From the NCBI GenBank assembly GCA_041649175.1, contig JBAZNR010000001.1, positions 158,934 through 222,933 of the forward strand: a stretch of DNA of 64,000 nt, read 5' to 3'. Source of the stretch: Candidatus Omnitrophota bacterium (GTDB lineage: Bacteria > Omnitrophota > Gorgyraeia > Zapsychrales > JBAZNR01). Below are positions 43,312 through 59,024 of this stretch, piece after piece. Numbering within the stretch: the first letter of the stretch is position 1; each line of letters opens with the position of its first letter. The position numbers and the translations under genes were made by a program. Under the pieces are notes generated by a model. It saw nothing but the letters and a program-made list of their open reading frames with translations. It did no database searches and was not told where the DNA came from.

Positions 43312-43324
43312 CTTGGCCTCCTTT

Positions 43325-43465: not shown

Positions 43466-43530
43466 GGCATCTTTCTATTTTAATAAATCTACTGCTCACG
43501 TTGTCCCCAGATAGAGAACAACTAAAAATA

Positions 43531-43794
43531 CTATTCCTCTACATTGATTCTTTTTTCGATCTTCTCGTTTGTTTTTGCTTCTATCTTTGGAGCTGATACC
43601 GGCCTAGGAATGATCAACTGGGTCTTTCGAGCTTTATAAATTGATTTTCCTGTTTGCTGCGCTTCCCCTGGTTTTACCGGTTTTAACATTCCCGCAAAAC
43701 TAAAAGTTAAAAACCCGACAACAGACAAAACAACAGCCATCACCATCATTGTGCTTTTCATATAATCCATTCCTTTTCCATTGATTGATGACAC
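43531..43794 (-). CDS. small single-TM protein
   Basis: ORF track; one hydrophobic helix. Confidence 0.3.
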   Translation of the reverse strand: MSSINGKGMDYMKSTMMVMAVVLSVVGFLTFSFAGMLKPVKPGEAQQTGKSIYKARKTQLIIPRPVSAPKIEAKTNEKIEKRINVEE

Positions 43795-44128
43795 CTTATT
43801 TTATTCATTTTTTTCCTGCCAAGAGGAAAGCCAATCATCTGGCCTATGCTCCCAAACCCGGCTCCTTCTCAGATAATGATTTTGTGGAACTTTGCAGATC
43901 CCACGACTTAAAAGAAGCTGTCTTATGGCATCTCTCGTCGTCACCCTTTTTGATCTATTTTCTCTGATCATCTTTTCTCACCTCCCCAGCTATGCTATCG
44001 CTAGTTGACAATAGCATTGTAGACAAAACACTAGAGAACGGTCAATTGTACTAAGGTACAACTCCTGGTTCTCCCTTTTAGGGCGTATTCCAGAAAATAT
44101 GATGAGATAATACTCGCGGTTTTTATTT

Positions 44129-45115
44129 TTAATTCTGTATCAACTCAATAAGCTTAGGATAAACCACTGTAGTTTTTTGGTAAGGTTGTTCCGGGTCAAT
44201 GAGGTCATGCAAAATACCTAAATTCTTATCAAACTGAAAGTGTGTTATTTTAACGCTGCTGTGTCGACGCCATTCTTTAATAACTCCATCGATCGTCTTC
44301 TCATTGACCGCACCATCCAAAGCGCTTGTAACAACTACAATGGCCCGAGTCTTTGGCGCCACGCTCCTGGCTTTTTTCATAACTGCCCAGCCAAGACACA
44401 TGATCTGAGCAACCCCTCTGGTCGAAAATCCGAAATAAGAGGACGTCGGCCCCGTGAGCGCTGTCTTTCCTTTCTTGTCCCACCACTCGAACTTATTGGG
44501 CCAAATGTATAAGAGGTTGATGGTCGGTTTAAACAAACCTGTCGGCAACCCCTTCCACCCCCAGAAAGGCGCGATGATAACAGCCTTATCAACATCGCTT
44601 CTATTTTGCGCGACCCAACCGGCCATGTTCGCGCCCATGGAAAAACCAACGATCGTGACATGTTTGCCCAGCCCTTGGGCAATATCCACGGATTCATCAC
44701 ATAATATGGCCAATTCCAACGCAGTCAGCTGGGCGAGGTCATTGGTCATCCGGTCCTTAAGGCCATGGTGCGGGACCCGGGGGATCAGAACATTATATCC
44801 CTTTTCATAAAAGATCTTTCCCAGCGCTTCAAATTGCCGGGGGCTATTGGTGTTCCCGTGAAAGAATACGATTGTCTCACGCGTTTCTTCCCCATGTGCC
44901 AGAAAAATAAGGCGCCCATCCGGGGAAACATCTTCCCCATCAAGAGCGCGTAAATGATCAATGCGCCTAACGCTTTCCTGATAGCTGAGAGATGGATTAG
45001 CTTTTGAAACGAGATGGCGCGTACGGACAGGTTTTAAAAAAAGAAAGCAAGCGCAGAGCAAGATTGCCAATAAAACAGTTCCCAGAAACTTAATGAAGAA
45101 AAGCTGTAACATCAA
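44129..45115 (-). CDS. alpha/beta-hydrolase (esterase/lipase-like) with N-terminal TM
   Basis: 'GFSMGANMAGW' GxSxG nucleophile elbow. Confidence 0.65.
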   Translation of the reverse strand: MMLQLFFIKFLGTVLLAILLCACFLFLKPVRTRHLVSKANPSLSYQESVRRIDHLRALDGEDVSPDGRLIFLAHGEETRETIVFFHGNTNSPRQFEALGKIFYEKGYNVLIPRVPHHGLKDRMTNDLAQLTALELAILCDESVDIAQGLGKHVTIVGFSMGANMAGWVAQNRSDVDKAVIIAPFWGWKGLPTGLFKPTINLLYIWPNKFEWWDKKGKTALTGPTSSYFGFSTRGVAQIMCLGWAVMKKARSVAPKTRAIVVVTSALDGAVNEKTIDGVIKEWRRHSSVKITHFQFDKNLGILHDLIDPEQPYQKTTVVYPKLIELIQN

Positions 45116-45121
45116 TGGCCC

Positions 45122-45526
45122 CTATGGAGTAGCCTGCGCATGAGTGTCGACCTTACCTTGCTTCAAGTCTTCTTTAGTTTTCTCAGCCAGTAAGCCATAC
45201 TTTTTTCGGATCTTCTCCAAATTCTCATCCGAGAGTTTTTCAATATCCATCATTTCGTTATGAGCTCCTTTGGTAGCTCGGATGATCTCATCAAGCTTGA
45301 GTTGAATCGCAATGGTGTGGCGATTTTGACTATTTTGAATGATAAAAAGCATGATAATAGAAATGACTGCTGCCAAAGTACTGATGATGAGCTGCCAGGT
45401 ATTATTAAAATGGAGTGCCGGTCCGAGCAGGCCCCAAACTAAAATAATAATAAATGCTAAAAAACACGCGAACGGTTGCGCGGCTTTATTGGAAAGCCAT
45501 TTTGAGAATACTGAAAAATATTCCAT
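45122..45526 (-). CDS. 'low-affinity iron permease' family (PF04120-like) small two-TM protein
   Basis: 'TWQLIISTLAAVISIIMLFIIQNSQNRHTIAIQLKLDEIIRATKGAHN…DIEKLSDENLEKIRKKY' matches the family consensus. Confidence 0.5.
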   Translation of the reverse strand: MEYFSVFSKWLSNKAAQPFACFLAFIIILVWGLLGPALHFNNTWQLIISTLAAVISIIMLFIIQNSQNRHTIAIQLKLDEIIRATKGAHNEMMDIEKLSDENLEKIRKKYGLLAEKTKEDLKQGKVDTHAQATP

Positions 45527-45550
45527 TGTTTCTCATCCTCTTTATTTTTC

Positions 45551-47719
45551 CTAACTCAAAGTTTCCTTAAATCTATCCAAACATATTTTCATAAATTGAT
45601 CCGGAAAAGCGTCAAACATCCTTTCCGCATGGCCGCCATCTTCCATGATGGTCAAAAGCTTAGGCTCCTTTGCCTTTGCAAATAAAAGCTGACTATGACT
45701 CAGCTTGACGAGCCAGTCTTTCTCACCATGAAGGAAGAGAACCGGTGTCGGTGATATCTTATCAACAACGTCGCGAGGCCGGATCTTTTGTAAAGCCAGG
45801 CTGCCTGACCTGACACCCTTCCCTTTCCCTTTGATCCCAAAATTAAGCATGAGATCTCTCCACATATCTTTTTCCCAAAAATGAAAATCGATCTTTCCTA
45901 AATCTGACGGGGAACTGACAGCGATCACACTATCAATGTTCTGATGGAAACTTGCCTCAACCAATGCGATCGCAGCACCCAGTGAAAACCCGATCACGCC
46001 GATTTTTTCATACTTGTTTTCTTTCGCATAAGCCGTGATCGCCCGAAGATCTTTTTGTTCAAGCGCTGTCCACGTAAACACATCGCTGCTCTTGCCATGC
46101 CCGCGAAAATCGAACACGATCACATCGTATTCTTTGCTAAATGCGTCAGCCATCCCTTTAAATAAAACCGTATCCTTATTGTTGTAAAATCCGGGCGCGA
46201 TAATAATAACTTTGAAAAACCCTCCTTTAATATGAAGAAAGGAGATGCGTTTCCCATCCTCTGTCATCACGTAACGATCAGGCTCGCTCTCCTGCGCAGG
46301 AGAAGGCGTCAGTTCAGCAGTTTTCGCCGTTCCATTAAGCGGAGTTGCGACTAAGTCGCCGGCCGCGCTCTTAGAAGAAAGGTCGTCGCTCTTTACCGTC
46401 GTATCATTAATTTTCTTGGGTTCCGTTTTCTTAAAATTTCCTTCAAAGATCGACATGATTATGGATTGAACATAATTTTTGTAAATATCCAACTCTGCTC
46501 TCATGCGCCAAAAGAAAAGATACTGCGAACTATTTCTCTTGCCCACGGAAATTGTTTTTCTTGATCTCGCATCTTCATAAATGGCTAACATGCGTTTGGC
46601 GGAGGCACTGATCGTGTATTTTTCTGCCGTCGTTCTTGCGGCCTGCTTTATGGTTTGTGTTTCTTCGGGAGAACGATTTAAAACCCACAGCAGTGCCTCA
46701 GAAAAGCTGGGTTGATCCATCTCCATAAGCAATCGTCCGTTACTGCCGTCTTTGACCATGTCCCGCGCTCCGGGCGCATCCAGCGCTACCACCGGAGCAC
46801 CTGATGCCATGGCTTCAATCAAGACGATCCCTTGAGTTTCGCTTAATGAGGCAAAGGCAAAAACATCCATAGCAAAATAAGCATCAACCAAATTCTGATA
46901 CTGCAAAACCCCGACCAAATGCACTCTTTCTTGAAGACCGGCTTTTTGAAAGGTGCCTTTGATCATTTTCTCTGATGAGCCTTTGCCAACGATCAGGGCA
47001 TGGACTCTTGTATCTTTCTTTAACGCTTCAACCATGCACTGGATCAGAAAGTCCAAATTTTTTTCCGACGCCAGACGCCCCGCATGTCCGATCACTAAGG
47101 CATCAAGAGGGATGTGGTTCTGCTCGCGAAACCCTTTTCTATCGCCTTTTGAGAAACGCTTCAAATCAACCCCGGTCGGAACGATCTCCATGGGTGTTTT
47201 AACACCTCTTTTAAGCAAGATTTCCTGCACGCTTTCGCAGGGCACGATCAGCCGGTCCACAAAATTGGCATATCCGGCAGACAGCTTGACCATAAATCGC
47301 TTGACTCCCTCGTTCTGAACCGGCAAATCCTGTGTGTACTCCTCAAACATCGTATGATACGTAAAGACCAGCGGTATAGCGTGCTGCCGGCTGAGGCGTA
47401 GAGCAAAATCTCCCATAAAAAACGGGCAATGGCTGTGGACAATATCCGGTGAAAATTCTTTCATAAGCCGCGTTAAGAGCATGGAAAACGGAAAATTAAC
47501 AGAGAAAATCGTCCGGTTGAATTTTTGGAAAGCGGGAAGCCGGATAACACCCGGCTCCTCTACGGGAGCCCCGTTAAAGGTTGGAGTCACGATCAAAACC
47601 TCATGCCCCAAAGTTTTAAATTCTTCGCTAAAAGAATAAACCGATTGCTCTAATCCTCCGACGATCGGGAAATAGGTATTTGTCATCATGAGAATTCTCA
47701 TTTTTTCTCCTTCGCACAA
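45551..47719 (-). CDS. fusion of N-terminal GT4 glycosyltransferase and C-terminal alpha/beta-hydrolase
   Basis: 'MRILMMTNTYFPIVGGLEQSV…' GT-B/GT4 and EX7E-like region; C-terminal 'GVIGFSLGAAIAL' nucleophile elbow. Confidence 0.6.
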   Translation of the reverse strand: MCEGEKMRILMMTNTYFPIVGGLEQSVYSFSEEFKTLGHEVLIVTPTFNGAPVEEPGVIRLPAFQKFNRTIFSVNFPFSMLLTRLMKEFSPDIVHSHCPFFMGDFALRLSRQHAIPLVFTYHTMFEEYTQDLPVQNEGVKRFMVKLSAGYANFVDRLIVPCESVQEILLKRGVKTPMEIVPTGVDLKRFSKGDRKGFREQNHIPLDALVIGHAGRLASEKNLDFLIQCMVEALKKDTRVHALIVGKGSSEKMIKGTFQKAGLQERVHLVGVLQYQNLVDAYFAMDVFAFASLSETQGIVLIEAMASGAPVVALDAPGARDMVKDGSNGRLLMEMDQPSFSEALLWVLNRSPEETQTIKQAARTTAEKYTISASAKRMLAIYEDARSRKTISVGKRNSSQYLFFWRMRAELDIYKNYVQSIIMSIFEGNFKKTEPKKINDTTVKSDDLSSKSAAGDLVATPLNGTAKTAELTPSPAQESEPDRYVMTEDGKRISFLHIKGGFFKVIIIAPGFYNNKDTVLFKGMADAFSKEYDVIVFDFRGHGKSSDVFTWTALEQKDLRAITAYAKENKYEKIGVIGFSLGAAIALVEASFHQNIDSVIAVSSPSDLGKIDFHFWEKDMWRDLMLNFGIKGKGKGVRSGSLALQKIRPRDVVDKISPTPVLFLHGEKDWLVKLSHSQLLFAKAKEPKLLTIMEDGGHAERMFDAFPDQFMKICLDRFKETLS

Positions 47720-49197
47720 GCGCAGACCAATCCATCCATTGAGGATTGGGTCTTTAATTCTATAAGCGCTTTTCTAGCCGCTATACATATCGCGTCGTAA
47801 GAGTTTTTCGCCCCCATGGCTAAGCCTTCTTTTTCCAGGTCTTTAGGCAGAAGCGGCTTACCAAACCTCACCCTGATCGGATGGCGCTTAGGATACGTTG
47901 CCGTACTAGACCAAGCCTCATGAGCTCCTTCGATCGCCACAGGCACAAGCTTTGCCCCTGTCTCCTTGGCCAAGACGCCGAATCCTTTTTTAAATTTCCC
48001 GATTTTGCCAGTAGCGCTGCGCAACCCTTCAGGAAAGAAACACAAGCCCTTTCCATGTTCTAACACAAGAAAACAACTACGTAGCGCTTCTAAGAAATGC
48101 GTTGAGAAATCAAAAGGAATAAATCTTCCCATCTTGACGAGATTCCATAAAATACTAGACTTTTCAAACGGCCTAAAAAAATACGGCCCAAAAACAAAAT
48201 AAAAAAGCTGAAACACTGGTCGACGCGGCAAACAAGCGGCAATGGCTGGCCCATCAAGAAAACTCGTATGGTTGCCATACAGAATATAAGCTCCTTCTTC
48301 AGGTACGTTCTTTGCGCCTTCTTCTTTAATACTGAAAAACAACTTAAAAATCAAACAATCGATAGCTGTCAAAACAAATCGAAACAACCAGGCAAAGTAA
48401 CCTGTGCTCAATTCGATCATTTCCAAATTTTCTTTTTTCGGCGGTACGCGTAAATTTTCTTTCCAATAGTCTGGCCCTAAAGGTATCTTTTGATTCTTCG
48501 AGGAAATGCCTTTGGCTTCCTTCAGCGCCTCCGCTATCCCTAAAATAAGATCCTTGACGCTAAAGGCTCTCGAGATCGCCTCTTCATTTATATCAGTTCC
48601 AAGAGCTGCCTCAAGGCACGAAGCAAGCTCTAGCCTGCCTAATGAATCTATGCCAATGTCCAGCTCTAATGAATTCTCAAGGATTATTGATCCGGTGATA
48701 CCGCTTTGTTCCTTCAAACATTTTAAAACTTTTATGCCGATCTCAGACTCTATCAAAAGAAGATCTTCTGGTAAAAGTTCTTTTGATACCGGAAGAGAGC
48801 CTTCTATGCCCTTAATCACCCTGGATTCATATATCTTCTTGACTGCGCTTCTTTCTAACTTACCGAAAAGCGTATGGGGTAAATCCTCAAGCGTAATCGT
48901 AAAACCTTTAAGCCTTTTATGCAAAGGGAGTGATTGCGAGGCATTGTCAAATCTCTCCTTAATGACAGAGCGTAGATTCACTTCACCAAATTCCCTAAAA
49001 TCATCAAGATCTGGCTGAATAATAGCCCAAAGAACTTTCGTCTTCCCTGCGCCTTCCATTCCAGAGACTGTAAAAACGCACATCTCTTTGACCGGAGCAA
49101 CTTTTGTATAAGCTTGCTCAATCTCTTCCGGATAAATTTTTTCCCCCGATTTCAATATGATAAAATTTTTAATTCTGGATGTCAGAGATGTGGTCAT
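47698..49197 (-). CDS. three-part protein: AMP-binding C-terminal subdomain, ACP (PP-binding) domain, PlsC-type lysophospholipid acyltransferase
   Basis: 'KSGEKIYPEEIEQAYTKVAPVKEMCVFTV' (AMP-binding_C-like); 'LDIGIDSLGRLEL' phosphopantetheine Ser motif; 'GNHTSFLDGP' HX4D acyltransferase motif. Confidence 0.5.
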   Translation of the reverse strand: MTTSLTSRIKNFIILKSGEKIYPEEIEQAYTKVAPVKEMCVFTVSGMEGAGKTKVLWAIIQPDLDDFREFGEVNLRSVIKERFDNASQSLPLHKRLKGFTITLEDLPHTLFGKLERSAVKKIYESRVIKGIEGSLPVSKELLPEDLLLIESEIGIKVLKCLKEQSGITGSIILENSLELDIGIDSLGRLELASCLEAALGTDINEEAISRAFSVKDLILGIAEALKEAKGISSKNQKIPLGPDYWKENLRVPPKKENLEMIELSTGYFAWLFRFVLTAIDCLIFKLFFSIKEEGAKNVPEEGAYILYGNHTSFLDGPAIAACLPRRPVFQLFYFVFGPYFFRPFEKSSILWNLVKMGRFIPFDFSTHFLEALRSCFLVLEHGKGLCFFPEGLRSATGKIGKFKKGFGVLAKETGAKLVPVAIEGAHEAWSSTATYPKRHPIRVRFGKPLLPKDLEKEGLAMGAKNSYDAICIAARKALIELKTQSSMDGLVCACAKEKK

Positions 49198-49201
49198 TTA
49201 T

Positions 49202-51934
49202 CTACCTCGCTCCTGTCGGCAAGCAGGATTTCAATTCAAAAGAATTCGTTCCTGGTGTAATTCTAACGTCATTAAAACCTTGCAATTGAATATCTATGGG
49301 TGGCTCGCTCTCAAACCACTGTCCTTGCCATTCGACAAGGATATTTTGCCCTTGAGGTTTTATGGAAATTTGAATATTTCCAAAACTTGTTGGCGCGGGA
49401 CCAAAAGAGATCGTTTGTTTTTTTTCTAACCAGATACACGGGATCCCGGAACATAAGATCAATCGCTCACCTTCTTCGCGCACAAAACAATTTCTGATCA
49501 TCAAAACCCATTCCGCCGCGGCCCACACATGCTGTCCGTCCCCCATACATCCGCCACCGGTACGCGGATGGACCGACTCAGGCCATTGCCCCGTTGGTGA
49601 AGCCAGCTTGGCCACCGCAGTCATCAAATCAAAATACCTTGGATCTCCCGCACGCAAAAGCACTTGAGCTAAATGCAGCGTAAGGTACGGATTGATCCCA
49701 GAATGAGTCATATCATGAAAGAATCCGCCATGAACTAAACAATTTTTCATTAAGAAATCAGCTGTGTCTAAGATCTTTGGGTCATTGGGTTCAAAAACAC
49801 GAAGCGGATAACTCGCCACCAAAGAGCCGATAGCCCCTGTATCCAAGCGCCGATAGGGAGAAGCTGGTATGGTAGGCTTTTTAAAACGCTCTTCCACTTT
49901 TTTTAAACTTTGTTCAATGCTGGCAAGTAATGCCTGCGATTCCTTTTCAAAATAAACAGCCTTCTCCTGATCTTTATAAGCCGCGCATAAAAAGGCTGAC
50001 GCTTTTAATCCTGCAACAGCCCAAAAGTCATCCCAATAATAAAAATCATTTGGCCCCAAATGCTCGGCGCTAAATCCCGATGGCAGTAAGCCCGCATGAG
50101 GGGATTGCAAGTTACTCGGCAAACGCTTTTTGCAGATCCACTGGCTCGCTTTATGGATGGATTCTTTCCATTCGTTAGGAGGGACATTTCCTGTCATCTC
50201 GCAATACTGACGCATGATCCACAAGGCCTCTCCATTAGAATCCCATTCCCCTTCTTGGGAAAGAAAATAACCTTGTTTTGTCTGGCGGGAACGAAAACAA
50301 TCTAGAGCCCTGCGGACACGCTCATTTAGCCCAACACATAACAAGGCATGCAATATGAACGCAGCATCACGAAACCAAAACCGTCGATAAATATAAGGAC
50401 CCGGATAAACTTCCCTGGGGGAATGCAGGACCATCGCATGAATCGCAGCTTCATAAAGAAATTGAAAATGCTCATCAGGAATTTTTAATGAACACACGCC
50501 TTGAAGGCTTTTTGCCCACTGTGCTTTAGCAATGTCTTGATAGTCTCCATAAGATTTTTCTTCATTTTTATTTTTCGTTAAAGGTACTGAAATAGTAATT
50601 TCTTCTTTTTGTCCGGATTCTAATATGAAAATAGCAGCAGAGCTAGCCATGCCGACTTTGCATGCCACTTCTTTTTCATTTTCTTCCGACGAAAACAACG
50701 GATCTTCCTGTTTTTTCTTCGTCGGTGGTATAGGAAAGGTCAAGCGGCTATATACATCGCCGCGATGATAATCAGAAAACATATACTGATCGGCGGGCTT
50801 ATCAAAATAGACGGAATGTTCGCGGTTAACTTGCCAGCCTAACGAGCCTTCCAGAAGAACAATACTATGTATAAAACTCACGCCTTCCGGGTTATACGGC
50901 CGCAAGGAGACAATTAATCGCGCATTGATAAAAACCTTTGCTGTGACTTTGATCTGGCAAAGAGGCGCTTGAGCTGATCCAATAACTTGCGTTCTTAATT
51001 GAAGGCTTAATTGATCTGAACTTGATGCTGTCGTCACATAAAAATCGTTATCTAGGCCCATCTTTTGCGATACGCTGTCACATTGCGACGGGATCAATGG
51101 ATCCCCTTTTTGGGGGATTATCCAGACATCAAGTGACCATCCATCATAATAGGGAGTCACAAGGCCGCGCGGATCCACCAAAGGGAAATCGATGCTATCG
51201 GGAACACCTAAGGCGGTCCAATTTCGGTGGGTAAGATTAATTTGGGTTAGCGAAAAAGATCTTGGAATGAACGCCACGTTGTGAGGATCATACTGGCATC
51301 GTACCCAATAGGGCCAGATCCAATCAAGATTATGCTGGATCGCTAAACTATTAAGTAAACCACGCGCGTGCAAAACAACGCCTGAGCGTAACAACTCCGT
51401 GGGAGCTGCTACCTCGGAAGGCTGCGAAAAGTTTTGCAATTGGGAAAGAACTTTGATGGGATCTAAAAACCCTTGCTTGCGCGCGGCATCAGTGACTAGA
51501 AATCTCCACGGAACCCATTTCCACCACACAAAATAAGCCCCCTTTTTTAAAAGAGACCTGAAAACCCACCACTTAAAGCAAATGAAAGTAAGCAATCCTG
51601 TAAACACCGCAGCGATAACCAAAGCCAAGAAAACAGAACTTGGCCACACGCTTAGAACATATCGGTTTATTAAAACATTAATTTCTAAGGCTAGGAAATT
51701 AATCAATATATACCGACGAATTTCAACATATGACGGCTGGTTACACTGAAATATCCAATATTTATTAAGCAAATACGCGGCAATACCCGCACACGTAAAA
51801 GAAACTGCTTTGGACAGACTGAAAGATAGAAAATGAATTAAGAAATAGTAAATACCAAAATCTACCGCCCCAACAAAAACCCCTGCGATAAGAAACCGGA
51901 CAATTTCTTTCTTAACATTCAGATTAGTTTTCAA
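49202..51934 (-). CDS. GtrA-like N-terminal membrane domain fused to a large (about 780 aa) six-hairpin glycosidase-like domain (GH15/GH63/GDE_C-like)
   Basis: N-terminal 4-TM 'RFLIAGVFVGAVDFGIYYFL…KYWIFQ' GtrA pattern; C-terminal alpha/alpha-toroid-like repeats. Hydrolase family not resolved. Confidence 0.45.
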   Translation of the reverse strand: MKTNLNVKKEIVRFLIAGVFVGAVDFGIYYFLIHFLSFSLSKAVSFTCAGIAAYLLNKYWIFQCNQPSYVEIRRYILINFLALEINVLINRYVLSVWPSSVFLALVIAAVFTGLLTFICFKWWVFRSLLKKGAYFVWWKWVPWRFLVTDAARKQGFLDPIKVLSQLQNFSQPSEVAAPTELLRSGVVLHARGLLNSLAIQHNLDWIWPYWVRCQYDPHNVAFIPRSFSLTQINLTHRNWTALGVPDSIDFPLVDPRGLVTPYYDGWSLDVWIIPQKGDPLIPSQCDSVSQKMGLDNDFYVTTASSSDQLSLQLRTQVIGSAQAPLCQIKVTAKVFINARLIVSLRPYNPEGVSFIHSIVLLEGSLGWQVNREHSVYFDKPADQYMFSDYHRGDVYSRLTFPIPPTKKKQEDPLFSSEENEKEVACKVGMASSAAIFILESGQKEEITISVPLTKNKNEEKSYGDYQDIAKAQWAKSLQGVCSLKIPDEHFQFLYEAAIHAMVLHSPREVYPGPYIYRRFWFRDAAFILHALLCVGLNERVRRALDCFRSRQTKQGYFLSQEGEWDSNGEALWIMRQYCEMTGNVPPNEWKESIHKASQWICKKRLPSNLQSPHAGLLPSGFSAEHLGPNDFYYWDDFWAVAGLKASAFLCAAYKDQEKAVYFEKESQALLASIEQSLKKVEERFKKPTIPASPYRRLDTGAIGSLVASYPLRVFEPNDPKILDTADFLMKNCLVHGGFFHDMTHSGINPYLTLHLAQVLLRAGDPRYFDLMTAVAKLASPTGQWPESVHPRTGGGCMGDGQHVWAAAEWVLMIRNCFVREEGERLILCSGIPCIWLEKKQTISFGPAPTSFGNIQISIKPQGQNILVEWQGQWFESEPPIDIQLQGFNDVRITPGTNSFELKSCLPTGAR

Positions 51935-52103
51935 TAAAATTTTCCTTCTGGATGGTCTATCTCTTCGTGATTTCCTGCGCTGTTAAAAACGAGGGACCCC
52001 TCTAAAAAATTGATCCTTAAAACAATAAGAATAGCTTTCTTGCTCAGAACTTACCATCCTCCGCCCCCTCCATCTTCAAGCAGAGGATGGTTTATCTTAA
52101 GTT

Positions 52104-52223
52104 CTATGTGGACATGATCTTCCGGCCGGCTTTACGATTCTTTACTTTTCCGCGTCCGCCGGGCCTCTTAGAAGCCCGCTTTTTTGCTGCCGTCATTCTT
52201 CCCCCTCGACTTTTCTTCGCCAT
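52104..52223 (-). CDS. candidate 39-aa highly basic protein (MAKKSRGGRMTAAKKRASKRPGGRGKVKNRKAGRKIMST). Not in the ORF track.
   Basis: Strong SD 'AAGGAGGT' 9 nt upstream of ATG (rc of 52224-52245); K/R content about 40%. Confidence 0.3.
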   Translation of the reverse strand: MAKKSRGGRMTAAKKRASKRPGGRGKVKNRKAGRKIMST

Positions 52224-52271
52224 TTCTTACAAACCTCCTTTTATGTTTTACAACTTGGTTGCCGTTTTTAA

Positions 52272-52931
52272 TTATTGTGTCGTAGTAGTGGTGGTCGTTG
52301 TGGTGGTTGTCGTGACAGTCGGTGAATACAGCGTAATATAACGCGCCAGCTGTTTCCCATCTTTTGCCACATATTCAACTTTAACAACATCGCCGGGCTT
52401 GATCATTAATTCCACGGGTTGTTTACTTGGACTGCGCATCACAATGATAGTCTTGGGGTCAAAAACAAAATAAGAGATCCTGCTTTTTTCTTCTTGGCCG
52501 ATCCTTACTCTTTCTTCCACCTCAAGCGTTCCAGCCGTAACATCAATAGCCTTTAACTCACCAAAGGCTTGCTGATACTCGGATGCCGGCAAAGGATTGA
52601 CAATGACTTTCTGTATAACTTTATCCTCTTGTCCGTCCGCCACATCAATAGTGACATATTGACCTGCCCGTAAGTCACCGACGTTGAGAAACTTTACATC
52701 CGCAGAATCAGTAACTCGCGTTTCATTTTGAGTAATTCTATACGCGATCGTTTTAGTGCCCTGGGGTGTCTCTCGATTAATTTCTAATTTACCTTGTTGA
52801 ATATCTACCCATCCGATTTCTCCTGATACCTGATGCACACCCACAGCCTCTTCAGCGCGCACAGATATGCCGCTGAATAATGCAACGGCCGCAATAACAC
52901 TAAATACTTTCAGATAATTTATATTCATCAA
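52272..52931 (-). CDS. secreted protein with C-terminal poly-Thr (T12) tail
   Basis: Signal peptide 'VIAAVALFSGISVRA'; C-terminus TVTTTTTTTTTTTTQ encoded by mixed ACN codons. Confidence 0.5.
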   Translation of the reverse strand: MMNINYLKVFSVIAAVALFSGISVRAEEAVGVHQVSGEIGWVDIQQGKLEINRETPQGTKTIAYRITQNETRVTDSADVKFLNVGDLRAGQYVTIDVADGQEDKVIQKVIVNPLPASEYQQAFGELKAIDVTAGTLEVEERVRIGQEEKSRISYFVFDPKTIIVMRSPSKQPVELMIKPGDVVKVEYVAKDGKQLARYITLYSPTVTTTTTTTTTTTTQ

Positions 52932-53004
52932 ACACGTTCCTTCCTAAAGATTAATTGTTTTAAATCACAGCATCCCGCTCTCACGAAAAAGACGTTGCCT
53001 TTCC

Positions 53005-53280
53005 TCAAAATTTTACTTTAAATTGCCCCTTACCATTATCTTGAGACGCCTCTTTCTTTTTTTCTTCTTTAATCACTTCTTTCTCAGCTATTTTTTCGGC
53101 CCTGATCTCCTTATTCTTCTTACTGTTGAACTCATCTCGGGTGCGTTTAAATTTTGCCTTTTCATTAGCATGCTCATACGCCGACATATTTGGGCGAGGT
53201 GATTTCTCGTTTCGCGCAAATCCTAAAACCGACACAGAAAACAATAGGCAGCACCCAATAACCATTATTTTCTTTTTCAT
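53005..53280 (-). CDS. small secreted Lys/Glu-rich protein
   Basis: Signal peptide MKKKIMVIGCCLLFSVSVLGFA; charged repetitive mature region. Confidence 0.35.
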   Translation of the reverse strand: MKKKIMVIGCCLLFSVSVLGFARNEKSPRPNMSAYEHANEKAKFKRTRDEFNSKKNKEIRAEKIAEKEVIKEEKKKEASQDNGKGQFKVKF

Positions 53281-53355
53281 TTCTTTTCCCTTTCTTTACG
53301 GAGCCCACAACAGTTAGTCTGCTCCTTTTAAAACTATCCCTCCGTTAGCGATCTA

Positions 53356-53634
53356 CTATTGGACAGCGCCTCTAACGGAATCCGCCACATCGCGACCCGC
53401 CGATTTAATATCATGCCCGACATCTTCAAGCGAGCTTCTAAAAAGTGGCCGTCCTCCGGCAATAGCCCAAATAAGAAAAACAGCCAAGAGGATAGCTAAA
53501 ACACCTGTAGGCCCATATCCCCACGACTTGTTGTAAGGCCAAGTGGGAAAAGTTGCCGCTAGAAAAACAACAATAATCAACAATAGTAAAGTTTCTGTAG
53601 TCATTTGATCTCTCCTTTTAGCGGACAGCCGCAA
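53356..53634 (-). CDS. small two-TM membrane protein
   Basis: ORF track; hydrophobic helices. Confidence 0.3.
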   Translation of the reverse strand: MRLSAKRRDQMTTETLLLLIIVVFLAATFPTWPYNKSWGYGPTGVLAILLAVFLIWAIAGGRPLFRSSLEDVGHDIKSAGRDVADSVRGAVQ

Positions 53635-54076
53635 TGCGGTTACTTTGCATCCCCGGAGAGGCCTGCGCGAAATGCGCCATCATATCATCAATGGATTTTA
53701 ACTTTGTGATCTCCATGCGATCTCGATGCAGTTTTAAGTCGCATCCTGTTTCCCTTTGAACAATTCTTTCAATGCTTGCCCAGCTACTGTGCTTGGAATT
53801 AAACTTAACTTGTTTGAGGTTCTTTAGGTCTAAGGAACCTCTGGATGTCCCAGGGAGATAAATCGTTCCATTGCTAAAATCGACAGCAAAGGCGATCACG
53901 CCTGGAATAATGCCAAAAAGCAATCCTATCCCATCGAGAAGAACAACTCCCGCGTCAATATGTCCTGCTCTTTGCCCTCTGCGCTCAGGATATAGAATTG
54001 TTCCGCAACCCATTAATTGAAAAACCAAAATACCGCAGATCAAGATACTCAATGTATTTGATAATTTTCTGAACAT
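53618..54076 (-). CDS. membrane/lipoprotein of unknown function
   Basis: 'ILICGILVFQLMGCG' lipobox-like, second TM. Confidence 0.35.
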   Translation of the reverse strand: MFRKLSNTLSILICGILVFQLMGCGTILYPERRGQRAGHIDAGVVLLDGIGLLFGIIPGVIAFAVDFSNGTIYLPGTSRGSLDLKNLKQVKFNSKHSSWASIERIVQRETGCDLKLHRDRMEITKLKSIDDMMAHFAQASPGMQSNRIAAVR

Positions 54077-54156
54077 AAATCCTCCACCTTTTTTGTGATA
54101 TTATTTTTTCGTTCTTATTTCTCACAGCGATACGTGCGCTCATTTCCGCAAATAAC

Positions 54157-54327
54157 TTACACAGACCCGATCCGAGCTCTCCCAAAAATGAAAATAATGA
54201 TCGACAGGATCAAAAAGACAAAAAATAGGATCTTGGCGATTTCAATGGCCGAACCCGCAATGCCACCAAACCCCAATAGCGCTGCAACAATAGCAATGAT
54301 AAAAAATGTAACCGCGTAATGTAACAT
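54157..54327 (-). CDS. UPF0391 / DUF1328 (YtjA-like) small membrane protein, 56 aa. Not in the ORF track.
   Basis: Hand translation gives [56 protein letters not shown], matching the '[21 protein letters not shown]' family core. Confidence 0.6.
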
Positions 54328-54383
54328 AGGGCCCTCCTTTCCTTTAACTTCATGATGATAATTCTAAAAGAAAGCAGGATTAA

Positions 54384-54405
54384 ATCAATTGTACCGAGGT
54401 ATACT
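54384..54405. promoter_or_regulatory. copy 1 of a conserved 22-nt motif ATCAATTGTACCGAGGTATACT, upstream of the UPF0391 gene and downstream of the FixJ-type RR
   Basis: 20/22 identical to 56566..56587. Confidence 0.4.
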
Positions 54406-54454
54406 CTTGGTTTTACTGATGAGAAGTTGACCTTTTCGAAGAATTAAGAAGCGG

Positions 54455-55081
54455 CTAATACTGGATGGAGGTAATGCCGGCTTTTTGGGCGAGATGAATG
54501 AGTTCGGTCACGGTTTTGGCTTGCATCTTCTGCATGACTCGGCCGCGGTGGACTTTTATTGTCTGCAGGGCCGTTCCCCGCTTAAAGGCAATTTGCTTAT
54601 TGAGCATTCCGTTAACAACCAGGCGGAAAACTTCAAGCTCTCGAGGGGAGAGTGTTTTGATATTTCGCCAAATTTTTGCTGTTTCGGCTTGTTTTTTATT
54701 TGTGGCTTTGCTTTTTACAATAGCAAGCTTGATGGCATCAAGAAGTTTCGGTGTGGCAAAGGGTTTGATAAAGAAGTCTACGGCTCCGGCTTTTATAGCT
54801 TTCACGCTCTTGGGAACATCGCCATACCCGGTAATAAAAATAATCGGGATATTGATCCCCTGTTGCACCATTTTCTCCTGTAGAACAAGCCCATTGATAT
54901 CCGGCAGACGGATATCAAGCAACAGGCAAGACGGCACCTTGGGATGTTTAAAAGTTAAGAAATCTTTAGCCCGCGTAAACGTCTCGGCCTTAAATCCGTA
55001 TGATTTTAACAATAGAGACAGGGCGCGGCACACCGAAACATCATCGTCAACAATATAGATGACAGCGCCATTACTTGTCAT
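54455..55081 (-). CDS. response regulator, REC plus LuxR-type HTH (FixJ/NarL family)
   Basis: 'VIYIVDDDVSVCRAL…LLDIRLPDING'; C-terminal 'LSPRELEVFRLVVNGMLNKQIA…'. Confidence 0.85.
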   Translation of the reverse strand: MTSNGAVIYIVDDDVSVCRALSLLLKSYGFKAETFTRAKDFLTFKHPKVPSCLLLDIRLPDINGLVLQEKMVQQGINIPIIFITGYGDVPKSVKAIKAGAVDFFIKPFATPKLLDAIKLAIVKSKATNKKQAETAKIWRNIKTLSPRELEVFRLVVNGMLNKQIAFKRGTALQTIKVHRGRVMQKMQAKTVTELIHLAQKAGITSIQY

Positions 55082-56025
55082 GAGTCTTTCTTTCCATTAA
55101 CGGGAAGGGTGAAATAAAAGGTTGCCCCGCGATCACGGTTATTCTTGGCCTCCAACCGGCCGCCGTGGGCTTCAATAATGGAGCGGCTTATAGACAGGCC
55201 CATACCCAAACCGTCCGGTTTATTGGTAAAAAAGTGAGTAAAGAGCTTTTTCATATTCTCAGCCGGAATGCCGCATCCCGAATCCCTGACTTCCACCACA
55301 ATGGTGTCGGCATCTTTGCGCGATGATTTGATCAGCATTTCTTGGGAATCACTGCCCGCATCCATAGCCTCTAGGCTGTTACTGATAAGATTCAAGAGCA
55401 CCTGTTGCAGTTGTATACGATCCCCCTGGATGGAGGGAAGCCTGCTGTCCAATTCGAAGTTGATGATTTTATTTCTGACGGTGATATGAGTTATGATAAG
55501 TGTGACCGTATCATTGATAAGATCGCTGATATTAAGAAGCTCCAAGGAGGGCTTACTCTTTTTCAATAATGTCCGCAACCGCCGAATAACCTCAGCGGCC
55601 CGATGATCATCATCAATAATGTGCTGCAAAATTTCCTGTAACTGGGGTTCCCTGCCCGCGAACATACGCTGAGCCGCTTGAGCATAAGAAAGAATGGCCG
55701 TTAGAGGTTGGCTGATTTCATGCGCCAAAGACGAAACGAACTCAGCAAGCTTTCCCACGCGCGTCACATGTAAAAGTTCCTCGCGTTGTTCCTCGATCTT
55801 CAGATCGGCGATCTTTTCCCGGTCAGCTCCCCGTTTTAACTGCCCGCTTCGTATTTTCAGCTCGCTTGTTTGCTGGCGCAGCCTTCGTTTCAGATTTTTT
55901 TGATCTGTTTGCTCGAGGAGCGCTTTTTTCGCAACCTTCCTGCCGGCACTTTGACGAACAGGCTCTTTTTTAATGGCCCGGCGCATCCCTTTAGCGATTA
56001 TTTTCTTTTCTGGTTTCATAGTCAT
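55078..56025 (-). CDS. soluble histidine kinase (coiled-coil, HisKA, HATPase_c), no TM or recognisable sensor domain
   Basis: 'LAHEISQPLTAI' H-box; 'DSGCGIP…GLGMGLSISRSI' G-boxes. Confidence 0.8.
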   Translation of the reverse strand: MTMKPEKKIIAKGMRRAIKKEPVRQSAGRKVAKKALLEQTDQKNLKRRLRQQTSELKIRSGQLKRGADREKIADLKIEEQREELLHVTRVGKLAEFVSSLAHEISQPLTAILSYAQAAQRMFAGREPQLQEILQHIIDDDHRAAEVIRRLRTLLKKSKPSLELLNISDLINDTVTLIITHITVRNKIINFELDSRLPSIQGDRIQLQQVLLNLISNSLEAMDAGSDSQEMLIKSSRKDADTIVVEVRDSGCGIPAENMKKLFTHFFTNKPDGLGMGLSISRSIIEAHGGRLEAKNNRDRGATFYFTLPVNGKKDS

Positions 56026-56063
56026 TTGTTAACCTTTTGCAAGAAACGTCACTATTATATTCC

Positions 56064-56477
56064 TTACTGTTTGATCATGCTATCCGTATTTTCTGTGGCC
56101 ACATTGATAAGATCCACCAGCGTCTGTCCATCAAAGGGCTTTTGCAAAAATCCCACGGCCCCTACTTTCATCGCCCTATCCACGGCACTCTCCTTCTTTT
56201 CGGCAGAAATAAAGATAACGGAAATTTTCGACCCCGAATCAAGCAGTTCTTTCTGCATGGCCCACCCGTCCGATCCCGGCATATGAATGTCAAGAACGAG
56301 ACAACCCGTTGCATCTATAGGCACGGCATCAAAAAAACCTTTTGCTGAGTTAAATGTGACCACTTCAAACTCATACGTCATCAAAAGAATTTTAAGCGCG
56401 AGGCACACAGACTCATCATCATCCACTATATAGATTTTCTTTTTGTCTGTAAGCAACTTTTCCTCCTCCCCGACCAA
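56064..56477 (-). CDS. single-domain response regulator (CheY-like)
   Basis: 'KIYIVDDDESVCLAL…LVLDIHMPGSDG…LQKPF'. Confidence 0.8.
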   Translation of the reverse strand: MVGEEEKLLTDKKKIYIVDDDESVCLALKILLMTYEFEVVTFNSAKGFFDAVPIDATGCLVLDIHMPGSDGWAMQKELLDSGSKISVIFISAEKKESAVDRAMKVGAVGFLQKPFDGQTLVDLINVATENTDSMIKQ

Positions 56478-56565
56478 TAAACAAAATTTTCCATTGGAAA
56501 AATTAAGACCAAGCGATTATAAATAACACTAAGCCTGGAAATATTCTATATAAGACAGCGAAAGA

Positions 56566-56587
56566 ATCAATTATACCGAGGTATAAT
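56566..56587. promoter_or_regulatory. copy 2 of the conserved 22-nt motif ATCAATTATACCGAGGTATAAT, in the leader of the REC-HK-RR operon
   Basis: 20/22 identical to 54384..54405; contains a TATAAT-like hexamer in either orientation. Confidence 0.4.
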
Positions 56588-56698
56588 AAGGGCAATGGAT
56601 ATGCATTCGAACATAAAAAATCCCCGGTGATATTTACCACCGGGGATTGCTTGCTTCTGGCAAGAAGTTTTGACAAGTTGGCATCGCACAACATCAAA

Positions 56699-57040
56699 TC
56701 AAATTGCGGTTCCGCCTCTTTCTTTAGTACGGATTCGAATGCACTCCTCCAATGGTGTAATAAAAATTTTTCCATCTCCGATTTTACCCTTGCCGTGTAC
56801 AGCACTGCTAAGAATAGCGTCCACTGCGATTTCGACAAACTCGTCATTGCAGGCAATATCCAGGCGCACTTTTGAGATAAGCTCCGGAACAACTTCATGT
56901 CCGCGAAAAATATCCGTTTCTTCTGCCCTCCCCCGTCCAGCACAGCGCGAAACAGTGATGCGATAGATTTCTTTTTTCACCAAGGCTTCCCGAACTTCAT
57001 CAAGTTTATCGGGTTGAATAATAGCAGTCACAAGCTTCAT
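56699..57040 (-). CDS. glnK: PII nitrogen regulatory protein (GlnK-type, next to amtB); T-loop lacks Tyr51
   Basis: 'MKLVTAIIQPDKLDEVREAL…GKIGDGKIFITPLEECIRIRT'; T-loop 'GRGRAEETDIFRGHEV' (Y46F, Y51V relative to E. coli GlnB). Confidence 0.85.
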   Translation of the reverse strand: MKLVTAIIQPDKLDEVREALVKKEIYRITVSRCAGRGRAEETDIFRGHEVVPELISKVRLDIACNDEFVEIAVDAILSSAVHGKGKIGDGKIFITPLEECIRIRTKERGGTAI

Positions 57041-57069
57041 CCGTTGATCCTCCTCAGGCGTTAATAATT

Positions 57070-58422
57070 TTAGTCTAAGCTAAGCATACCGTATCCATGT
57101 TCACCGTGCAGGGCATGATCGAGACCCGCCATTTCATTTGCTTTATCCAAACGAAATCCTATTGTTTTTTCAACAACATAACAAATGAATAAAGTACCGG
57201 CGACCGAAAGCGCAATCACGGCCCCCAATCCTTGAAGCTGTACCACCAATTGATCCCAGGCAGTCCAACCTTTTCCGACGGATATAAACCAGCTGGGACG
57301 AATAAAAAATGACAAAAGCAAAACCGCTGATCCGCTACCAACCGCATGAATACCAAAACAGTCCAAGCTGTCATCATAGGCAAGCTTTGTTTTAAGAAGC
57401 AAGGCAAGAAAACAGATGCAGGCTGATAAAGCGCCTAAGGCAAGCGCGCCACTAGGTAACACCACTCCGGCTGCCGGCGTAATTGCAACCAACCCCGCAA
57501 GAATTCCGGAAACAAATCCTAACGATGTCGCTTTTTTAAAAAGAATTGCTTCAATGATAAGCCATGTCAGGGCGCCGCTGGCCGCCGAAATCTGAGTCAT
57601 GGTCAACGCCCGAGCGGTATCCAGTCCGCTATGAACAGTTGATCCTGCATTAAATCCAAACCACCCAACCCATAAAAATCCTGCGCCTGTCAGCGTCATG
57701 ACAAGGTTGTTGGGGCGCATCGTTGTTTTGGGGTATCCGCGCCGCGGACCTAAAAAAAGTGCCGCCACCAACGCGCTTACACCTGCGGACACGTGGATCA
57801 CCAACCCACCGGCCAAGTCAATAACTCCCGCTTTGGCCAACCAGCCATCTGATGCCCACACCCAATGACACAACGGACAATAGACAATGAGAAACCATAG
57901 CGAAATAAACAAACAGTACCCTTTAAAATAGACCCGTTCCGCTAATGCCCCGGCAATCAGCGCCGGTGCAATGATAGCGAATTTTCCCTGAAACATAGCA
58001 ATCACATATTCCGGAACACCGTTAACGATGCTGTTATCTATCCCCTGCAGAAAGAAATATTGAGGATTCCATCCCAAAAATCCACCAAGAATATTTTTCC
58101 CAAAGCACAATGCATAGCCACAAACAACCCAAAGAATCCCGATAATCGCAATCGAGACAAAACAATGCATCATCGTTCCTAAAACGTTTTTGGTTCTCAC
58201 CAATCCGCCATAAAACATAGCCAGGCCTGGAACCATCAACAACACTAATGCTGTTGCGATGAGCATCCAAGCCGTTGTCCCTGTGTCCACGACTTCTTCG
58301 GCAACTGTTTGCGCCCAGCATGGGCCAGAAAAAATACCGCATAAAAACAATGCAACCGTCAACATTCGTATGATAGATTTTATTTTCTCCATCTTAAGTC
58401 CTTTGCTTATTTTACATTTCAT
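57070..58422 (-). CDS. amtB: ammonium transporter (Amt family). Start possibly at the internal Met (58392).
   Basis: Signal peptide then the conserved Amt TM core ('…DLAGGLVIHVSAGVSALVAALFLGPR…'). Confidence 0.85.
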   Translation of the reverse strand: MKCKISKGLKMEKIKSIIRMLTVALFLCGIFSGPCWAQTVAEEVVDTGTTAWMLIATALVLLMVPGLAMFYGGLVRTKNVLGTMMHCFVSIAIIGILWVVCGYALCFGKNILGGFLGWNPQYFFLQGIDNSIVNGVPEYVIAMFQGKFAIIAPALIAGALAERVYFKGYCLFISLWFLIVYCPLCHWVWASDGWLAKAGVIDLAGGLVIHVSAGVSALVAALFLGPRRGYPKTTMRPNNLVMTLTGAGFLWVGWFGFNAGSTVHSGLDTARALTMTQISAASGALTWLIIEAILFKKATSLGFVSGILAGLVAITPAAGVVLPSGALALGALSACICFLALLLKTKLAYDDSLDCFGIHAVGSGSAVLLLSFFIRPSWFISVGKGWTAWDQLVVQLQGLGAVIALSVAGTLFICYVVEKTIGFRLDKANEMAGLDHALHGEHGYGMLSLD

Positions 58423-58714
58423 GTTTCTCGACTTAGCATCTCACCTTTAAAAATGCCTATCCTTTTATTGGACATCATCGCCCAAAAATGAAAAGAAACC
58501 TTCCCGAAAACAAAACGTTTTCAGAAAAGGCTTCTTTGCCTTTAAATATTACGGCACCAATGCCGCAAATAGGTACGTAAGTATATTACAAGTTTAAAGT
58601 TATGGTGTCTGTGATACTCATCACACATAAAAAAGCTATGACCACTTTAGGCAATCATAGCCTAAAATCCCTATCACTTGCTAAAGCGAGTTAAATTAAC
58701 GGGTAGGTGATCCC

Positions 58715-58736
58715 GCCAAAAGTGGGGGCGACCCCC
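58715..58736 (-). terminator. Rho-independent terminator-like GC hairpin (GGGGG-TCG-CCCCC) followed by ACUUUUGG on the minus strand
   Basis: Seen directly: + strand 'ccaaaagtgggggcgaccccc'. Confidence 0.45.
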
Positions 58737-58757
58737 TGGCCTTCCGCCAGGACAGGA

Positions 58758-58778
58758 AAGATCCACAATCTTGTGCTC
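58758..58778 (-). repeat. 21-nt exact duplicate of the tRNA-His D-stem/anticodon-arm segment (pseudo-tRNA fragment)
   Basis: 'aagatccacaatcttgtgctc' is identical to 58948..58968 inside tRNA-His. Confidence 0.7.
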
Positions 58779-58916
58779 CCCCGTTTTCCAAAACCTAAAG
58801 ACAATGCCCTGCGTTTAAAACTGCCCCTTGACTAAGCACTTGAAATTTTTTCGCTTTGCTCAAAAATTTCTGCGTAATCACGGGGTTTCATTTCGCTCGC
58901 AAGAGCGAAATTCAAG

Positions 58917-58992
58917 GGTGGGTGAAGGGATTTGAACCCTCGACCCCAAGATCCACAATCTTGTGCTCTAACCGAACTGAGCTACACCCACC
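58917..58992 (-). tRNA. tRNA-His (anticodon GTG) with encoded G-1; CCA not encoded
   Basis: rc folds as GGUGGGU(G-1)…anticodon loop UUGUGGA…T-arm GAGGG/UUCAAAU/CCCUU…CACCCACC. Confidence 0.85.
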
Positions 58993-59024
58993 ATTAAATC
59001 AATTTTCTCTAAAAACCGTGAAAT

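Follow-up and report, generated by a model that had tools for sequence, protein, structure and literature searches.

A conserved palindromic box-plus-promoter element linked to a FixJ/StyR-type two-component system in Omnitrophota

Introduction

In class II activation by LuxR and TraR, a dimer with GerE-type helix-turn-helix (HTH) domains sits on an 18-20-bp palindrome near -42.5, the lux box, which abuts or overlaps the -35 hexamer. DosR/DevR of Mycobacterium, a member of the NarL/FixJ superfamily, is autoregulated and controls a dispersed stress/survival regulon through a palindromic box of ~20 bp beside the -35. Here we describe a palindromic box joined to a promoter that flanks a two-component operon in a 64,000-nucleotide (nt) stretch of a Candidatus Omnitrophota genome (contig JBAZNR010000001.1, positions 158,934 to 222,933; hereafter the window) and that recurs in loci with an orthologous regulator. 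The operon encodes a stand-alone receiver (REC), a histidine kinase (HK) and a response regulator (RR) that combines a REC domain with a GerE/LuxR-type HTH.

This locus resembles both systems in part. With LuxR and TraR it shares a palindrome near -42.5 at the -35, as suits a dimer, but those regulators are ligand-activated rather than phosphorylated, and lux-type promoters usually lack a good -35, whereas TTGAT is almost invariant here. With DosR/DevR it has in common the regulator superfamily, a predicted autoregulation, a dispersed regulon and a palindrome next to the -35; it differs in box sequence, phylum and gene content, and DosR works with the GAF-haem kinases DosS/DosT and has no associated stand-alone receiver.

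Among proteins of solved structure, the nearest homologue of the window's regulator is StyR, of the StyS/StyR system (Pseudomonas, PstyA), whose activating site likewise lies at about -40. The StyR box, ATAAACC-AT-GGTTTAT, differs in sequence from the Omnitrophota box. StyR differs from the present regulator in serving a single catabolic operon with the help of IHF and extra low-affinity sites, with neither a dispersed regulon nor a stand-alone receiver, and StyS is a large double-sensor kinase. Phosphorylation of StyR drives its dimerisation and its binding to inverted repeats, and activation requires a high-affinity site at about -40 relative to the start point (PMC2442086). The nearest NCBIfam models come from the FixL-FixJ(-FixK-FixT) pathway of Alphaproteobacteria. 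There, Caulobacter FixT, a pathway-induced single-domain receiver with a four-Cys Fe-S site, inhibits FixL (PMC7078487), which sets a precedent for feedback through a receiver. Unlike FixLJ, the Omnitrophota system has no haem-PAS (none in the window kinase, a LOV-like PAS in its relatives) and no FixK tier, its element is not a FixK/FNR box, and its target genes are others.

Results

A palindrome joined to a sigma-70-type promoter

A reading of the window from its sequence only had drawn attention to two 22-mers, ATCAATTGTACCGAGGTATACT (54384-54405) and ATCAATTATACCGAGGTATAAT (56566-56587; both on the + strand), and these are indeed in the same orientation and identical at 20 of 22 positions. 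They are the only matches with up to three mismatches in the 64 kb, and 100 dinucleotide-preserving shuffles of the window gave none. The gene context had also been described correctly, with motif 2 between glnK and REC and motif 1 between the regulator and DUF1328; the full minus-strand order is amtB, glnK, an intrinsic terminator, motif 2, REC, HK, the REC-GerE regulator, motif 1, DUF1328, an open reading frame (ORF) of 152 amino acids (aa) and DUF3309. The REC-operon leader, previously put at 220 bp, is shorter, at ~80 nt from a predicted start near 56536 to the TTG start codon at 56456. In the direction of transcription the motif reads A(G/T)TATACCTCGGTA(C/T)AATTGAT, and the similarity outreaches the 22-mer, with an identical TAGAAT exactly 16 nt past TTGATT at both sites.

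The anatomy of the element was derived from a profile of 125 related sites with flanks, collected by pattern match from 61 orthologous loci. The base preceding TATACC is T in 119 of these sites and the base before that is A or G. Both lie outside the positions selected by the pattern, and the true unit is therefore an 18-bp palindrome, (A/G)TTATACC-YN-GGTA(C/T)AAT, or ATTATACC-YN-GGTAYAAT. Abutting it as a -35 hexamer is a conserved TTGAT(T/C), followed by T at +20, TT(T) at +24 to +26 and a TAnAAT-like signal at +37 to +42. A good -10, with four or more of its six bases matching, among them the A in second and the T in sixth place, stands 16-17 nt after TTGATT at 119 of 158 sites (75%) versus 4.7% of 2000 random positions in the same loci; most of these hexamers are TATAAT, TAGAAT, TAAAAT or TACAAT.

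The centre of the palindrome is 8.5 nt upstream of the first TTGATT base. It falls at about -42.5 with a 16-nt spacer, or -43.5 with a 17-nt spacer, because the start is taken as the usual 7 nt after the -10. Relative to these predicted starts, the box lies where class II activators bind, centred near -41.5 to -43.5 and abutting or overlapping the -35. We regard this anatomy, with TTGATT as -35, a -10 at 16-17 nt and the box at about -42.5 from the predicted start, as very likely correct.

Several other identities for the element were tried and rejected. An FNR/FixK box, TTGAT-N4-ATCAA, starting at the motif's TTGAT is ruled out, as the consensus after TTGAT-N4 is TTTTG. By-eye comparison led us to drop a NarL heptamer, TACYYMT, in 7-2-7 arrangement, which misfits in spacing and sequence where a canonical -35/-10 pair suffices; a sigma-54 -24/-12 element and the Bacteroidetes TAnnTTTG -7 element were dropped for the same misfits. 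An RNA element in the leaders was likewise abandoned: an Rfam scan of 43000-59000 matched no leader RNA family, and its sole match was a tRNA gene upstream of amtB (58917-58991, -; RF00005, 69 bits).

With 275 sites of other loci as its training set, a weight matrix was then run over the window. It found exactly three sites, all on the minus strand, at 56559-56588 (38.8 bits; box 2), 54377-54406 (38.3 bits; box 1) and 44034-44063 (24.3 bits; box 3), compared with a maximum of 6.0 bits over 20 shuffles. Two small ORFs follow the weaker box 3. A homologue of the first, of 56 aa, lies directly behind a box in L038, and a homologue of the second, of 87 aa, is the gene behind the post-regulator box in L003; both homologues speak for box 3 as a genuine site. 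The sequence-only reading had overlooked the palindrome, this third site and the role of the stand-alone receiver gene as the main conserved target.

Conservation of the element and its linkage to the regulator gene

Species-representative genomes were scanned with an alignment of 26 regulator orthologues, and 80 loci were returned: Omnitrophota-type orthologues at 58-87% identity (L002-L062) and outgroups from other phyla at 45-55% identity (L063-L081). Metagenomes are the source of all the sequences, either as assembled genomes or as contigs. The window's regulator is 100% identical to a protein encoded on a 1.2-Mb contig of a metagenome-assembled Candidatus Omnitrophota genome, and its conservation is unusually high: more than 120 clusters match it at 73-89% identity. 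The motif is present, in the orientation of the regulator, in almost all of L002-L062 and is absent in that form from the outgroups.

In the orthologous loci the kinase and regulator genes are always adjacent, and a box starts at most 250 nt past the regulator stop codon in 54 of the 60 loci with enough downstream sequence, whatever the next gene. The stand-alone receiver gene is almost always directly behind a box, on whichever side of HK-RR it lies, so that the arrangement is either box-REC-HK-RR-box, as in the window and ~20 close relatives, or HK-RR-box-...-box-REC. In two loci (L040, 6655-6680; L037, 2951-2976) one palindrome between divergent genes has TTGAT on both sides, and a single box appears to serve two promoters. 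Such a double-flanked palindrome would be expected of a symmetric dimer that takes its direction of action from the flanking -35.

An independent sample was obtained by scanning metagenomes with the motif TATACCNNGGTACAATTGAT as seed, rather than with proximity to the regulator, which gave at least 120 stretches of DNA; all figures from this sample hold among the matches listed. The unselected flanks were again conserved (T at -1, 120 of 131 sites; +20, 113; +24, 116; +25, 101; +26, 96), and a good -10 at a spacer of 16-17 nt was present at 123 of 130 sites. The regulator gene occurred in 24 of 120 motif-seeded loci averaging 5.8 kb, which amounts to a very large enrichment over random placement in genomes of one to a few Mb. 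Most sites of this sample lie away from the regulator and the regulon is therefore dispersed. A rough extrapolation from one site per ~50 kb away from the regulator gives roughly tens of sites per genome.

The sites are strongly biased in position. Open frames of 120 codons or more contain only 14% of them but 80% of random positions. On the same strand, 30-200 nt downstream, 67% of the sites and 23% of random positions are followed by a start that is preceded by a Shine-Dalgarno (SD) sequence and opens an ORF of 40 aa or more. Pairwise identity averages 0.77 in the element and 0.38 in the spacer and -10, and drops to 0.27-0.30, the background level, in the flanks. We conclude that this is almost certainly a real, conserved cis-regulatory element. 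The sequence-only reading had proposed a shared promoter or regulator-binding element that links the two-component system to DUF1328 and marks the regulon of the local FixJ/NarL-type system. Comparative genomics strongly reinforces both the shared element and its use as a regulon signature; binding by the regulator is the part that we put forward as probable.

Within the -35/-10 spacer, the T at +20 and the TTT tract at +24 to +26 are conserved in ~75-90% of sites in both samples, and the same tract is seen in the window in the region of 56559-56565 and 54377-54383. An additional contact with protein, or a requirement for a certain DNA shape, could account for it.

The adjacent regulator as the probable binding protein

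We consider it quite probable that the box is bound by the adjacent FixJ/StyR-type regulator, because the box adjoins the RR gene and also precedes the regulator's own operon. The 8-2-8 palindrome has half-site centres one helical turn apart and so suits a dimer of GerE-type HTH domains. The window's regulator has the domains of the FixJ/NarL type (Pfam Response_reg, 3.9e-25; GerE, 5.2e-16, residues 143-198), and its closest solved structures are StyR 1YIO (6e-47, full length) and then Bradyrhizobium FixJ 5XSO. Among 26 regulator orthologues D12, D13, D14, D56 and K106 are invariant and T84 is nearly so.

The recognition helix reads G-T-[AS]-L-Q-T-I-K-V-H-R in all Omnitrophota regulators. Among the outgroups, all five regulators with an E-I-T-V-K helix, from four phyla, have a related box, ATCATACC-NN-GGTATGAT, in their locus, whereas of the other 14, mostly with E-K-T, only two have even a one-mismatch match to the core (Fisher p ~0.002, hand-calculated). 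The variant box usually lies right after the regulator or ahead of a REC-only gene, and its carriers are Deltaproteobacteria, Verrucomicrobiota, an alphaproteobacterium and Acidobacteria. The module may extend well beyond Omnitrophota and be of much greater age.

The boxes also differ according to the gene that they precede. The 13th base is T, which makes the palindrome perfect (GGTATAAT), in 12 of 16 boxes upstream of REC-HK-RR versus 15 of 110 others (Fisher p ~1e-6, in the genome-derived set, which is free of metagenome seed bias); the other boxes mostly have C (GGTACAAT), which breaks the symmetry. The window follows this rule, with a perfect box 2 (56573) and a C in box 1 (54391). This pattern suggests a built-in affinity hierarchy, in which an autoregulatory site of higher affinity would fire first and produce positive feedback.

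The kinase and the stand-alone receiver

The nearest NCBIfam model to the regulator is FixJ (NF006900), at 190.4 bits and thus below the equivalog cutoff of 255. The stand-alone receiver is nearest to the FixJ receiver, and the kinase to the FixL transmitter, matching only FixL residues 243-482. With scores below the FixJ/FixL cutoffs, the system resembles FixLJ without being FixLJ itself.

The receiver has retained its acidic pocket, the phospho-acceptor Asp, and the Ser and Lys. It has two Cys only (SVCLAL, TGCLVL) and thus cannot form the four-Cys Fe-S site of Caulobacter FixT. Like FixT, it would be encoded by a pathway-controlled gene, as the box ahead of that gene indicates. Whether it acts as negative feedback we rate at about even chances.

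A Pfam search found no PAS or other sensor domain in the window kinase. The orthologous kinases fall into two classes, ~20 short ones (292-325 aa) like that of the window and ~36 long ones (403-530 aa), and the long ones carry a single PAS_9 domain (~36 of 56 orthologues; for example L007, 4748-5995). The window kinase aligns to the long form on both sides of the PAS and lacks precisely that domain. In a PDB search the PAS is of LOV type (LOV histidine kinase 9VF7, 7e-27; phototropin LOV, ~1e-23), with G-x-N-Y-F-L-L-Y-G where LOV has G-x-N-C-R-F-L-Q-G, so that the adduct-forming Cys is replaced by Tyr, the Arg by Phe and the Gln by Tyr. It looks like a LOV-derived sensor whose photochemistry has been lost. 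The Omnitrophota lineage is found mostly in dark, anoxic habitats.

Genes behind the boxes

The first genes downstream of sites in both samples, 323 in all, were called with a simple SD and ORF heuristic, which yields a few spurious ones, and were clustered and annotated with Pfam; the counts include the metagenome sample and share its scope. The most frequent target is the REC-only gene (79 sites in 66 loci). It is followed by DUF2934 (13 sites), DUF1328 (8 sites in 8 loci), a BamE-like lipoprotein (8 sites; weak Pfam match), DUF6515, a His/Asp-rich secreted protein (8 sites), an unclassified 69-aa acidic ORF (8 sites) and MlaE permease (6 sites). DUF5670, GGDEF, BON and Transgly_assoc (GlsB/YeaQ/YmgE) have 4 sites each, CsbD has 3-4, DUF883_C-like (weak), low-affinity iron permease and entericidin have 3 each, and ferritin and DUF3185 have 2 each. 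Among the further genes downstream of boxes are DUF3309, VIT1 and an extracytoplasmic function (ECF) sigma factor.

OsmY (BON), YeaQ/YmgE and ElaB/YqjD are members of the sigma-S regulon. The box-associated genes overlap in content with the sigma-S (Enterobacteria), sigma-B (Firmicutes) and EcfG/PhyR (Alphaproteobacteria) regulons, through DUF1328/YtjA, CsbD/YjbJ, entericidin/EcnB, Transgly_assoc, BON/OsmY, DUF883/ElaB-like and ferritin. Three small genes of Salmonella, ecnB, yjbJ (CsbD-like) and ytjA (DUF1328), belong to a group under tight sigma-S control (PMC5437024). Thus the small stress proteins typical of a general stress regulon are present, the DUF883_C match being weak, and we hold a general-stress-type regulon to be a reasonable reading of this gene content, somewhat more likely than not. 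The known regulons depend on a dedicated alternative sigma factor with its own promoter, whereas the promoters found here are sigma-70-like, TTGATT-16/17-TAnAAT, with an operator upstream. We infer that specificity would come from this operator together with the two-component regulator.

Discussion

The reading that we favour, with fair confidence, is that the element is a composite operator-promoter from which a regulator dimer activates its own operon and a set of dispersed small stress-type genes. The FixL-like kinase would phosphorylate the FixJ/StyR-type regulator, which would then dimerise, bind the two half-sites through its two GerE-type HTH domains and recruit RNA polymerase from a class II position on a sigma-70-type promoter. 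Box 2 would drive the regulator's own REC-HK-RR operon in positive autoregulation, box 1 the DUF1328 to DUF3309 cluster, and box 3 the two small ORFs at 43.5-44.0 kb. Across Omnitrophota the element would drive dispersed small membrane or stress-type genes and, almost always, a stand-alone receiver, which would exert negative feedback, either as a phosphate sink or by inhibiting the kinase.

The same operator and regulator could also work by repression of a core promoter that is constitutively strong, with the protein at -51 to -34 blocking sigma region 4 or the alpha C-terminal domain until a signal relieves it. The near-consensus -35 and -10 at a spacing of 16-17 nt are unusual for activator-dependent promoters, and StyR also represses from other positions (PMC2442086). 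We nevertheless judge repression unlikely: the site is upstream of the -35 and abuts it, rather than covering the -10 or the start site; activation is the mode of its nearest relatives of known action, FixJ and StyR, with StyR acting from about -40; and the divergent promoters that share one box in L040 and L037 fit a symmetric activator well. Given binding by the regulator, activation would be the likely outcome. That a different transcription factor, encoded elsewhere, binds the box, with the two-component operon as a conserved target only, seems to us improbable. Such a factor would be in keeping with how common signalling genes are as regulon members and with the ~75-80% of motif-seeded loci, among the matches listed, in which the fetched DNA holds no regulator gene, but it would leave aside the box that directly follows the RR gene regardless of the next gene, the presence and type of box that track the recognition helix across phyla, the fit of the 8-2-8 palindrome to a GerE-type dimer, and a regulator conservation that parallels the near-invariant box.

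The sequence-only reading had taken TATAAT/TACAAT within the motif as a -10, so that transcription would start inside TTGAT or directly behind it. Both hexamers would make a good -10, and a weak A/T-rich signal lies 17-22 nt upstream. However, the hexamer belongs to the palindrome, as the outer part of the right arm, and has its mirror image, ATTRTA, in the left; the 125-site profile shows no conserved -35 at 17 nt upstream (information content at most 0.2 bit); and the conserved TTGATT and the -10 at +37 to +42 would be left unexplained. A -10 inside the motif is thus highly improbable, and we place the -35 and -10 farther downstream. The many copies per genome and the hundreds of exact matches in metagenomes might suggest a dispersed repeat or a miniature mobile element, without regulatory function. 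However, the similarity ends at ~30 nt, the sites are intergenic and co-oriented with the downstream gene, and the same gene families recur behind them. A repeat without positional bias, the finding that would have spoken against a regulatory motif, is therefore not what we see; a miniature inverted-repeat transposable element or a repetitive extragenic palindromic element is ruled out, and practically no probability remains for this explanation.

Several points weigh against the activator reading or narrow its support. The core promoter, TTGATT-16/17-TAnAAT, is near consensus and may be active without an activator, which would suit a repressor too. Conservation inside the 20 pattern positions is partly circular in sites collected by pattern, so that the unbiased evidence consists of the flanks, the -10 and the gene associations. 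The covariation of helix and box comes from 19 outgroup loci that are phylogenetically non-independent. All of the organisms are uncultivated and known only from metagenome-assembled genomes, and a few of the L002-L062 loci were labelled as other phyla by their depositors, labels that we keep as deposited. The window kinase, with no sensor domain, leaves no input signal to be read from its domains. The label of stress is drawn from gene content, and many targets have no known function.

The components of the proposed system are of known kinds: a two-component regulator, a class II palindromic operator, autoregulation and a feedback receiver. In the literature, searches on the box pattern and on regulation in Omnitrophota/Omnitrophica turned up nothing relevant. 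The novelty, we suggest, lies in the box itself, in its conservation across the phylum, in the regulon that it defines, and in the placing of a stress-like gene set on housekeeping-type promoters through a two-component regulator. More tentatively, operator and two-component regulator may do the job that an alternative sigma factor does in other phyla, with related ATCATACC-NN-GGTATGAT modules in Verrucomicrobiota, Acidobacteria and Deltaproteobacteria.

With related modules at work in those phyla, this would be a regulatory system of wide distribution that had gone unrecognised. Omnitrophota are widespread and almost entirely uncultivated, and the element would give them a precise cis-regulatory code, a box-plus-promoter of ~30 nt with predicted starts, from which a candidate regulator and its regulon can be read directly in any genome assembly or metagenome. 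It would also show how the circuit is wired, with a regulator that activates its own operon and a receiver induced along with it, and would supply a shared regulatory context for DUF1328, DUF3309, DUF5670, DUF2934, DUF3185, DUF6515 and several unclassified small ORFs. The protein and the DNA are small, and in vitro work is possible without cultivating the organism.

Features of the window

The coordinates of the features are collected in Table 1. The strong terminator after glnK (56648-56619) parts amtB-glnK from the REC-HK-RR promoter. The 152-aa ORF is probably co-transcribed with DUF1328, given the same strand and the short gap, and DUF3309 probably belongs to the same transcription unit; in L003 the DUF3309 gene has a box of its own.

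Table 1. Boxes, promoter hexamers and genes of the window, with the variant boxes of the outgroup loci
Feature	Position	Strand	Remarks
amtB	58422-57070	-	
glnK/P-II	57040-56699	-	
Intrinsic terminator after glnK	56619-56648	-	13-bp stem, 7 G-C pairs, then T run
Box 2, perfect palindrome ATTATACC-TC-GGTATAAT	56570-56587	-	Upstream of REC-HK-RR; putative autoregulatory operator
-35 TTGATT of REC-HK-RR promoter	56565-56570	-	Overlaps last base of box 2
-10 TAGAAT of REC-HK-RR promoter	56543-56548	-	16-nt spacer; predicted start near 56536
Stand-alone receiver (REC), 130 aa	56064-56456	-	Pfam Response_reg; TTG start after GGAGGAGG
Histidine kinase, 315 aa	55078-56025	-	Basic coiled-coil N-terminus, HisKA and HATPase
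Response regulator, 208 aa	54455-55081	-	REC and GerE/LuxR-type HTH; proposed box-binding protein
Box 1, AGTATACC-TC-GGTACAAT	54388-54405	-	Directly after regulator gene, upstream of DUF1328
-35 TTGATT of DUF1328 promoter	54383-54388	-	
-10 TAGAAT of DUF1328 promoter	54361-54366	-	16-nt spacer; predicted start near 54354
DUF1328 (UPF0391/YtjA-like) small membrane protein	54157-54327	-	Pfam 3e-15; first gene behind box 1
152-aa lipoprotein-like ORF	53618-54076	-	No Pfam match
DUF3309 small membrane protein	53356-53604	-	Pfam
Box 3 (weaker), GTTGTACC-TT-AGTACAAT	44045-44062	-	Weight matrix 24.3 bits
Box 3 promoter	44016-44045	-	-35 TTGACC 44045-44040, 18-nt spacer, -10 TACAAT 44021-44016; predicted start near 44009
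Two small ORFs behind box 3	43531-43971	-	56 aa (43971-43801); 87 aa, secreted (43794-43531)
Variant boxes, outgroup loci	L066 6635; L069 5117, 5261; L077 6603; L080 3770, 3916; L081 6608, 7152, 7386		

Two further genes of the window bear on the extent of the regulon. The weight matrix gave no box above 8 bits upstream of the 910-aa GtrA-fusion gene (49202-51934, -) or of the low-affinity iron permease gene (PF04120; 45122-45526, -), although homologues of both lie directly behind boxes elsewhere (L040, L122, L051). Regulon membership therefore varies between genomes.

A contig of 8779 nt from Logan run SRR8542065 (L001) is 100% identical to window positions 50192-58970. It was dropped as an independent strain for this identity, which places the same organism in that run. 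L001 supports the REC and DUF3309 gene calls. In the gene string downstream of DUF1328 sits a 219-aa secreted protein (52272-52931, -) with a run of 12 Thr codons before its last residue, the opposite strand reading poly-Val; it has no Pfam match, and in L001 it was called at 218 aa, a difference of start-codon choice only.

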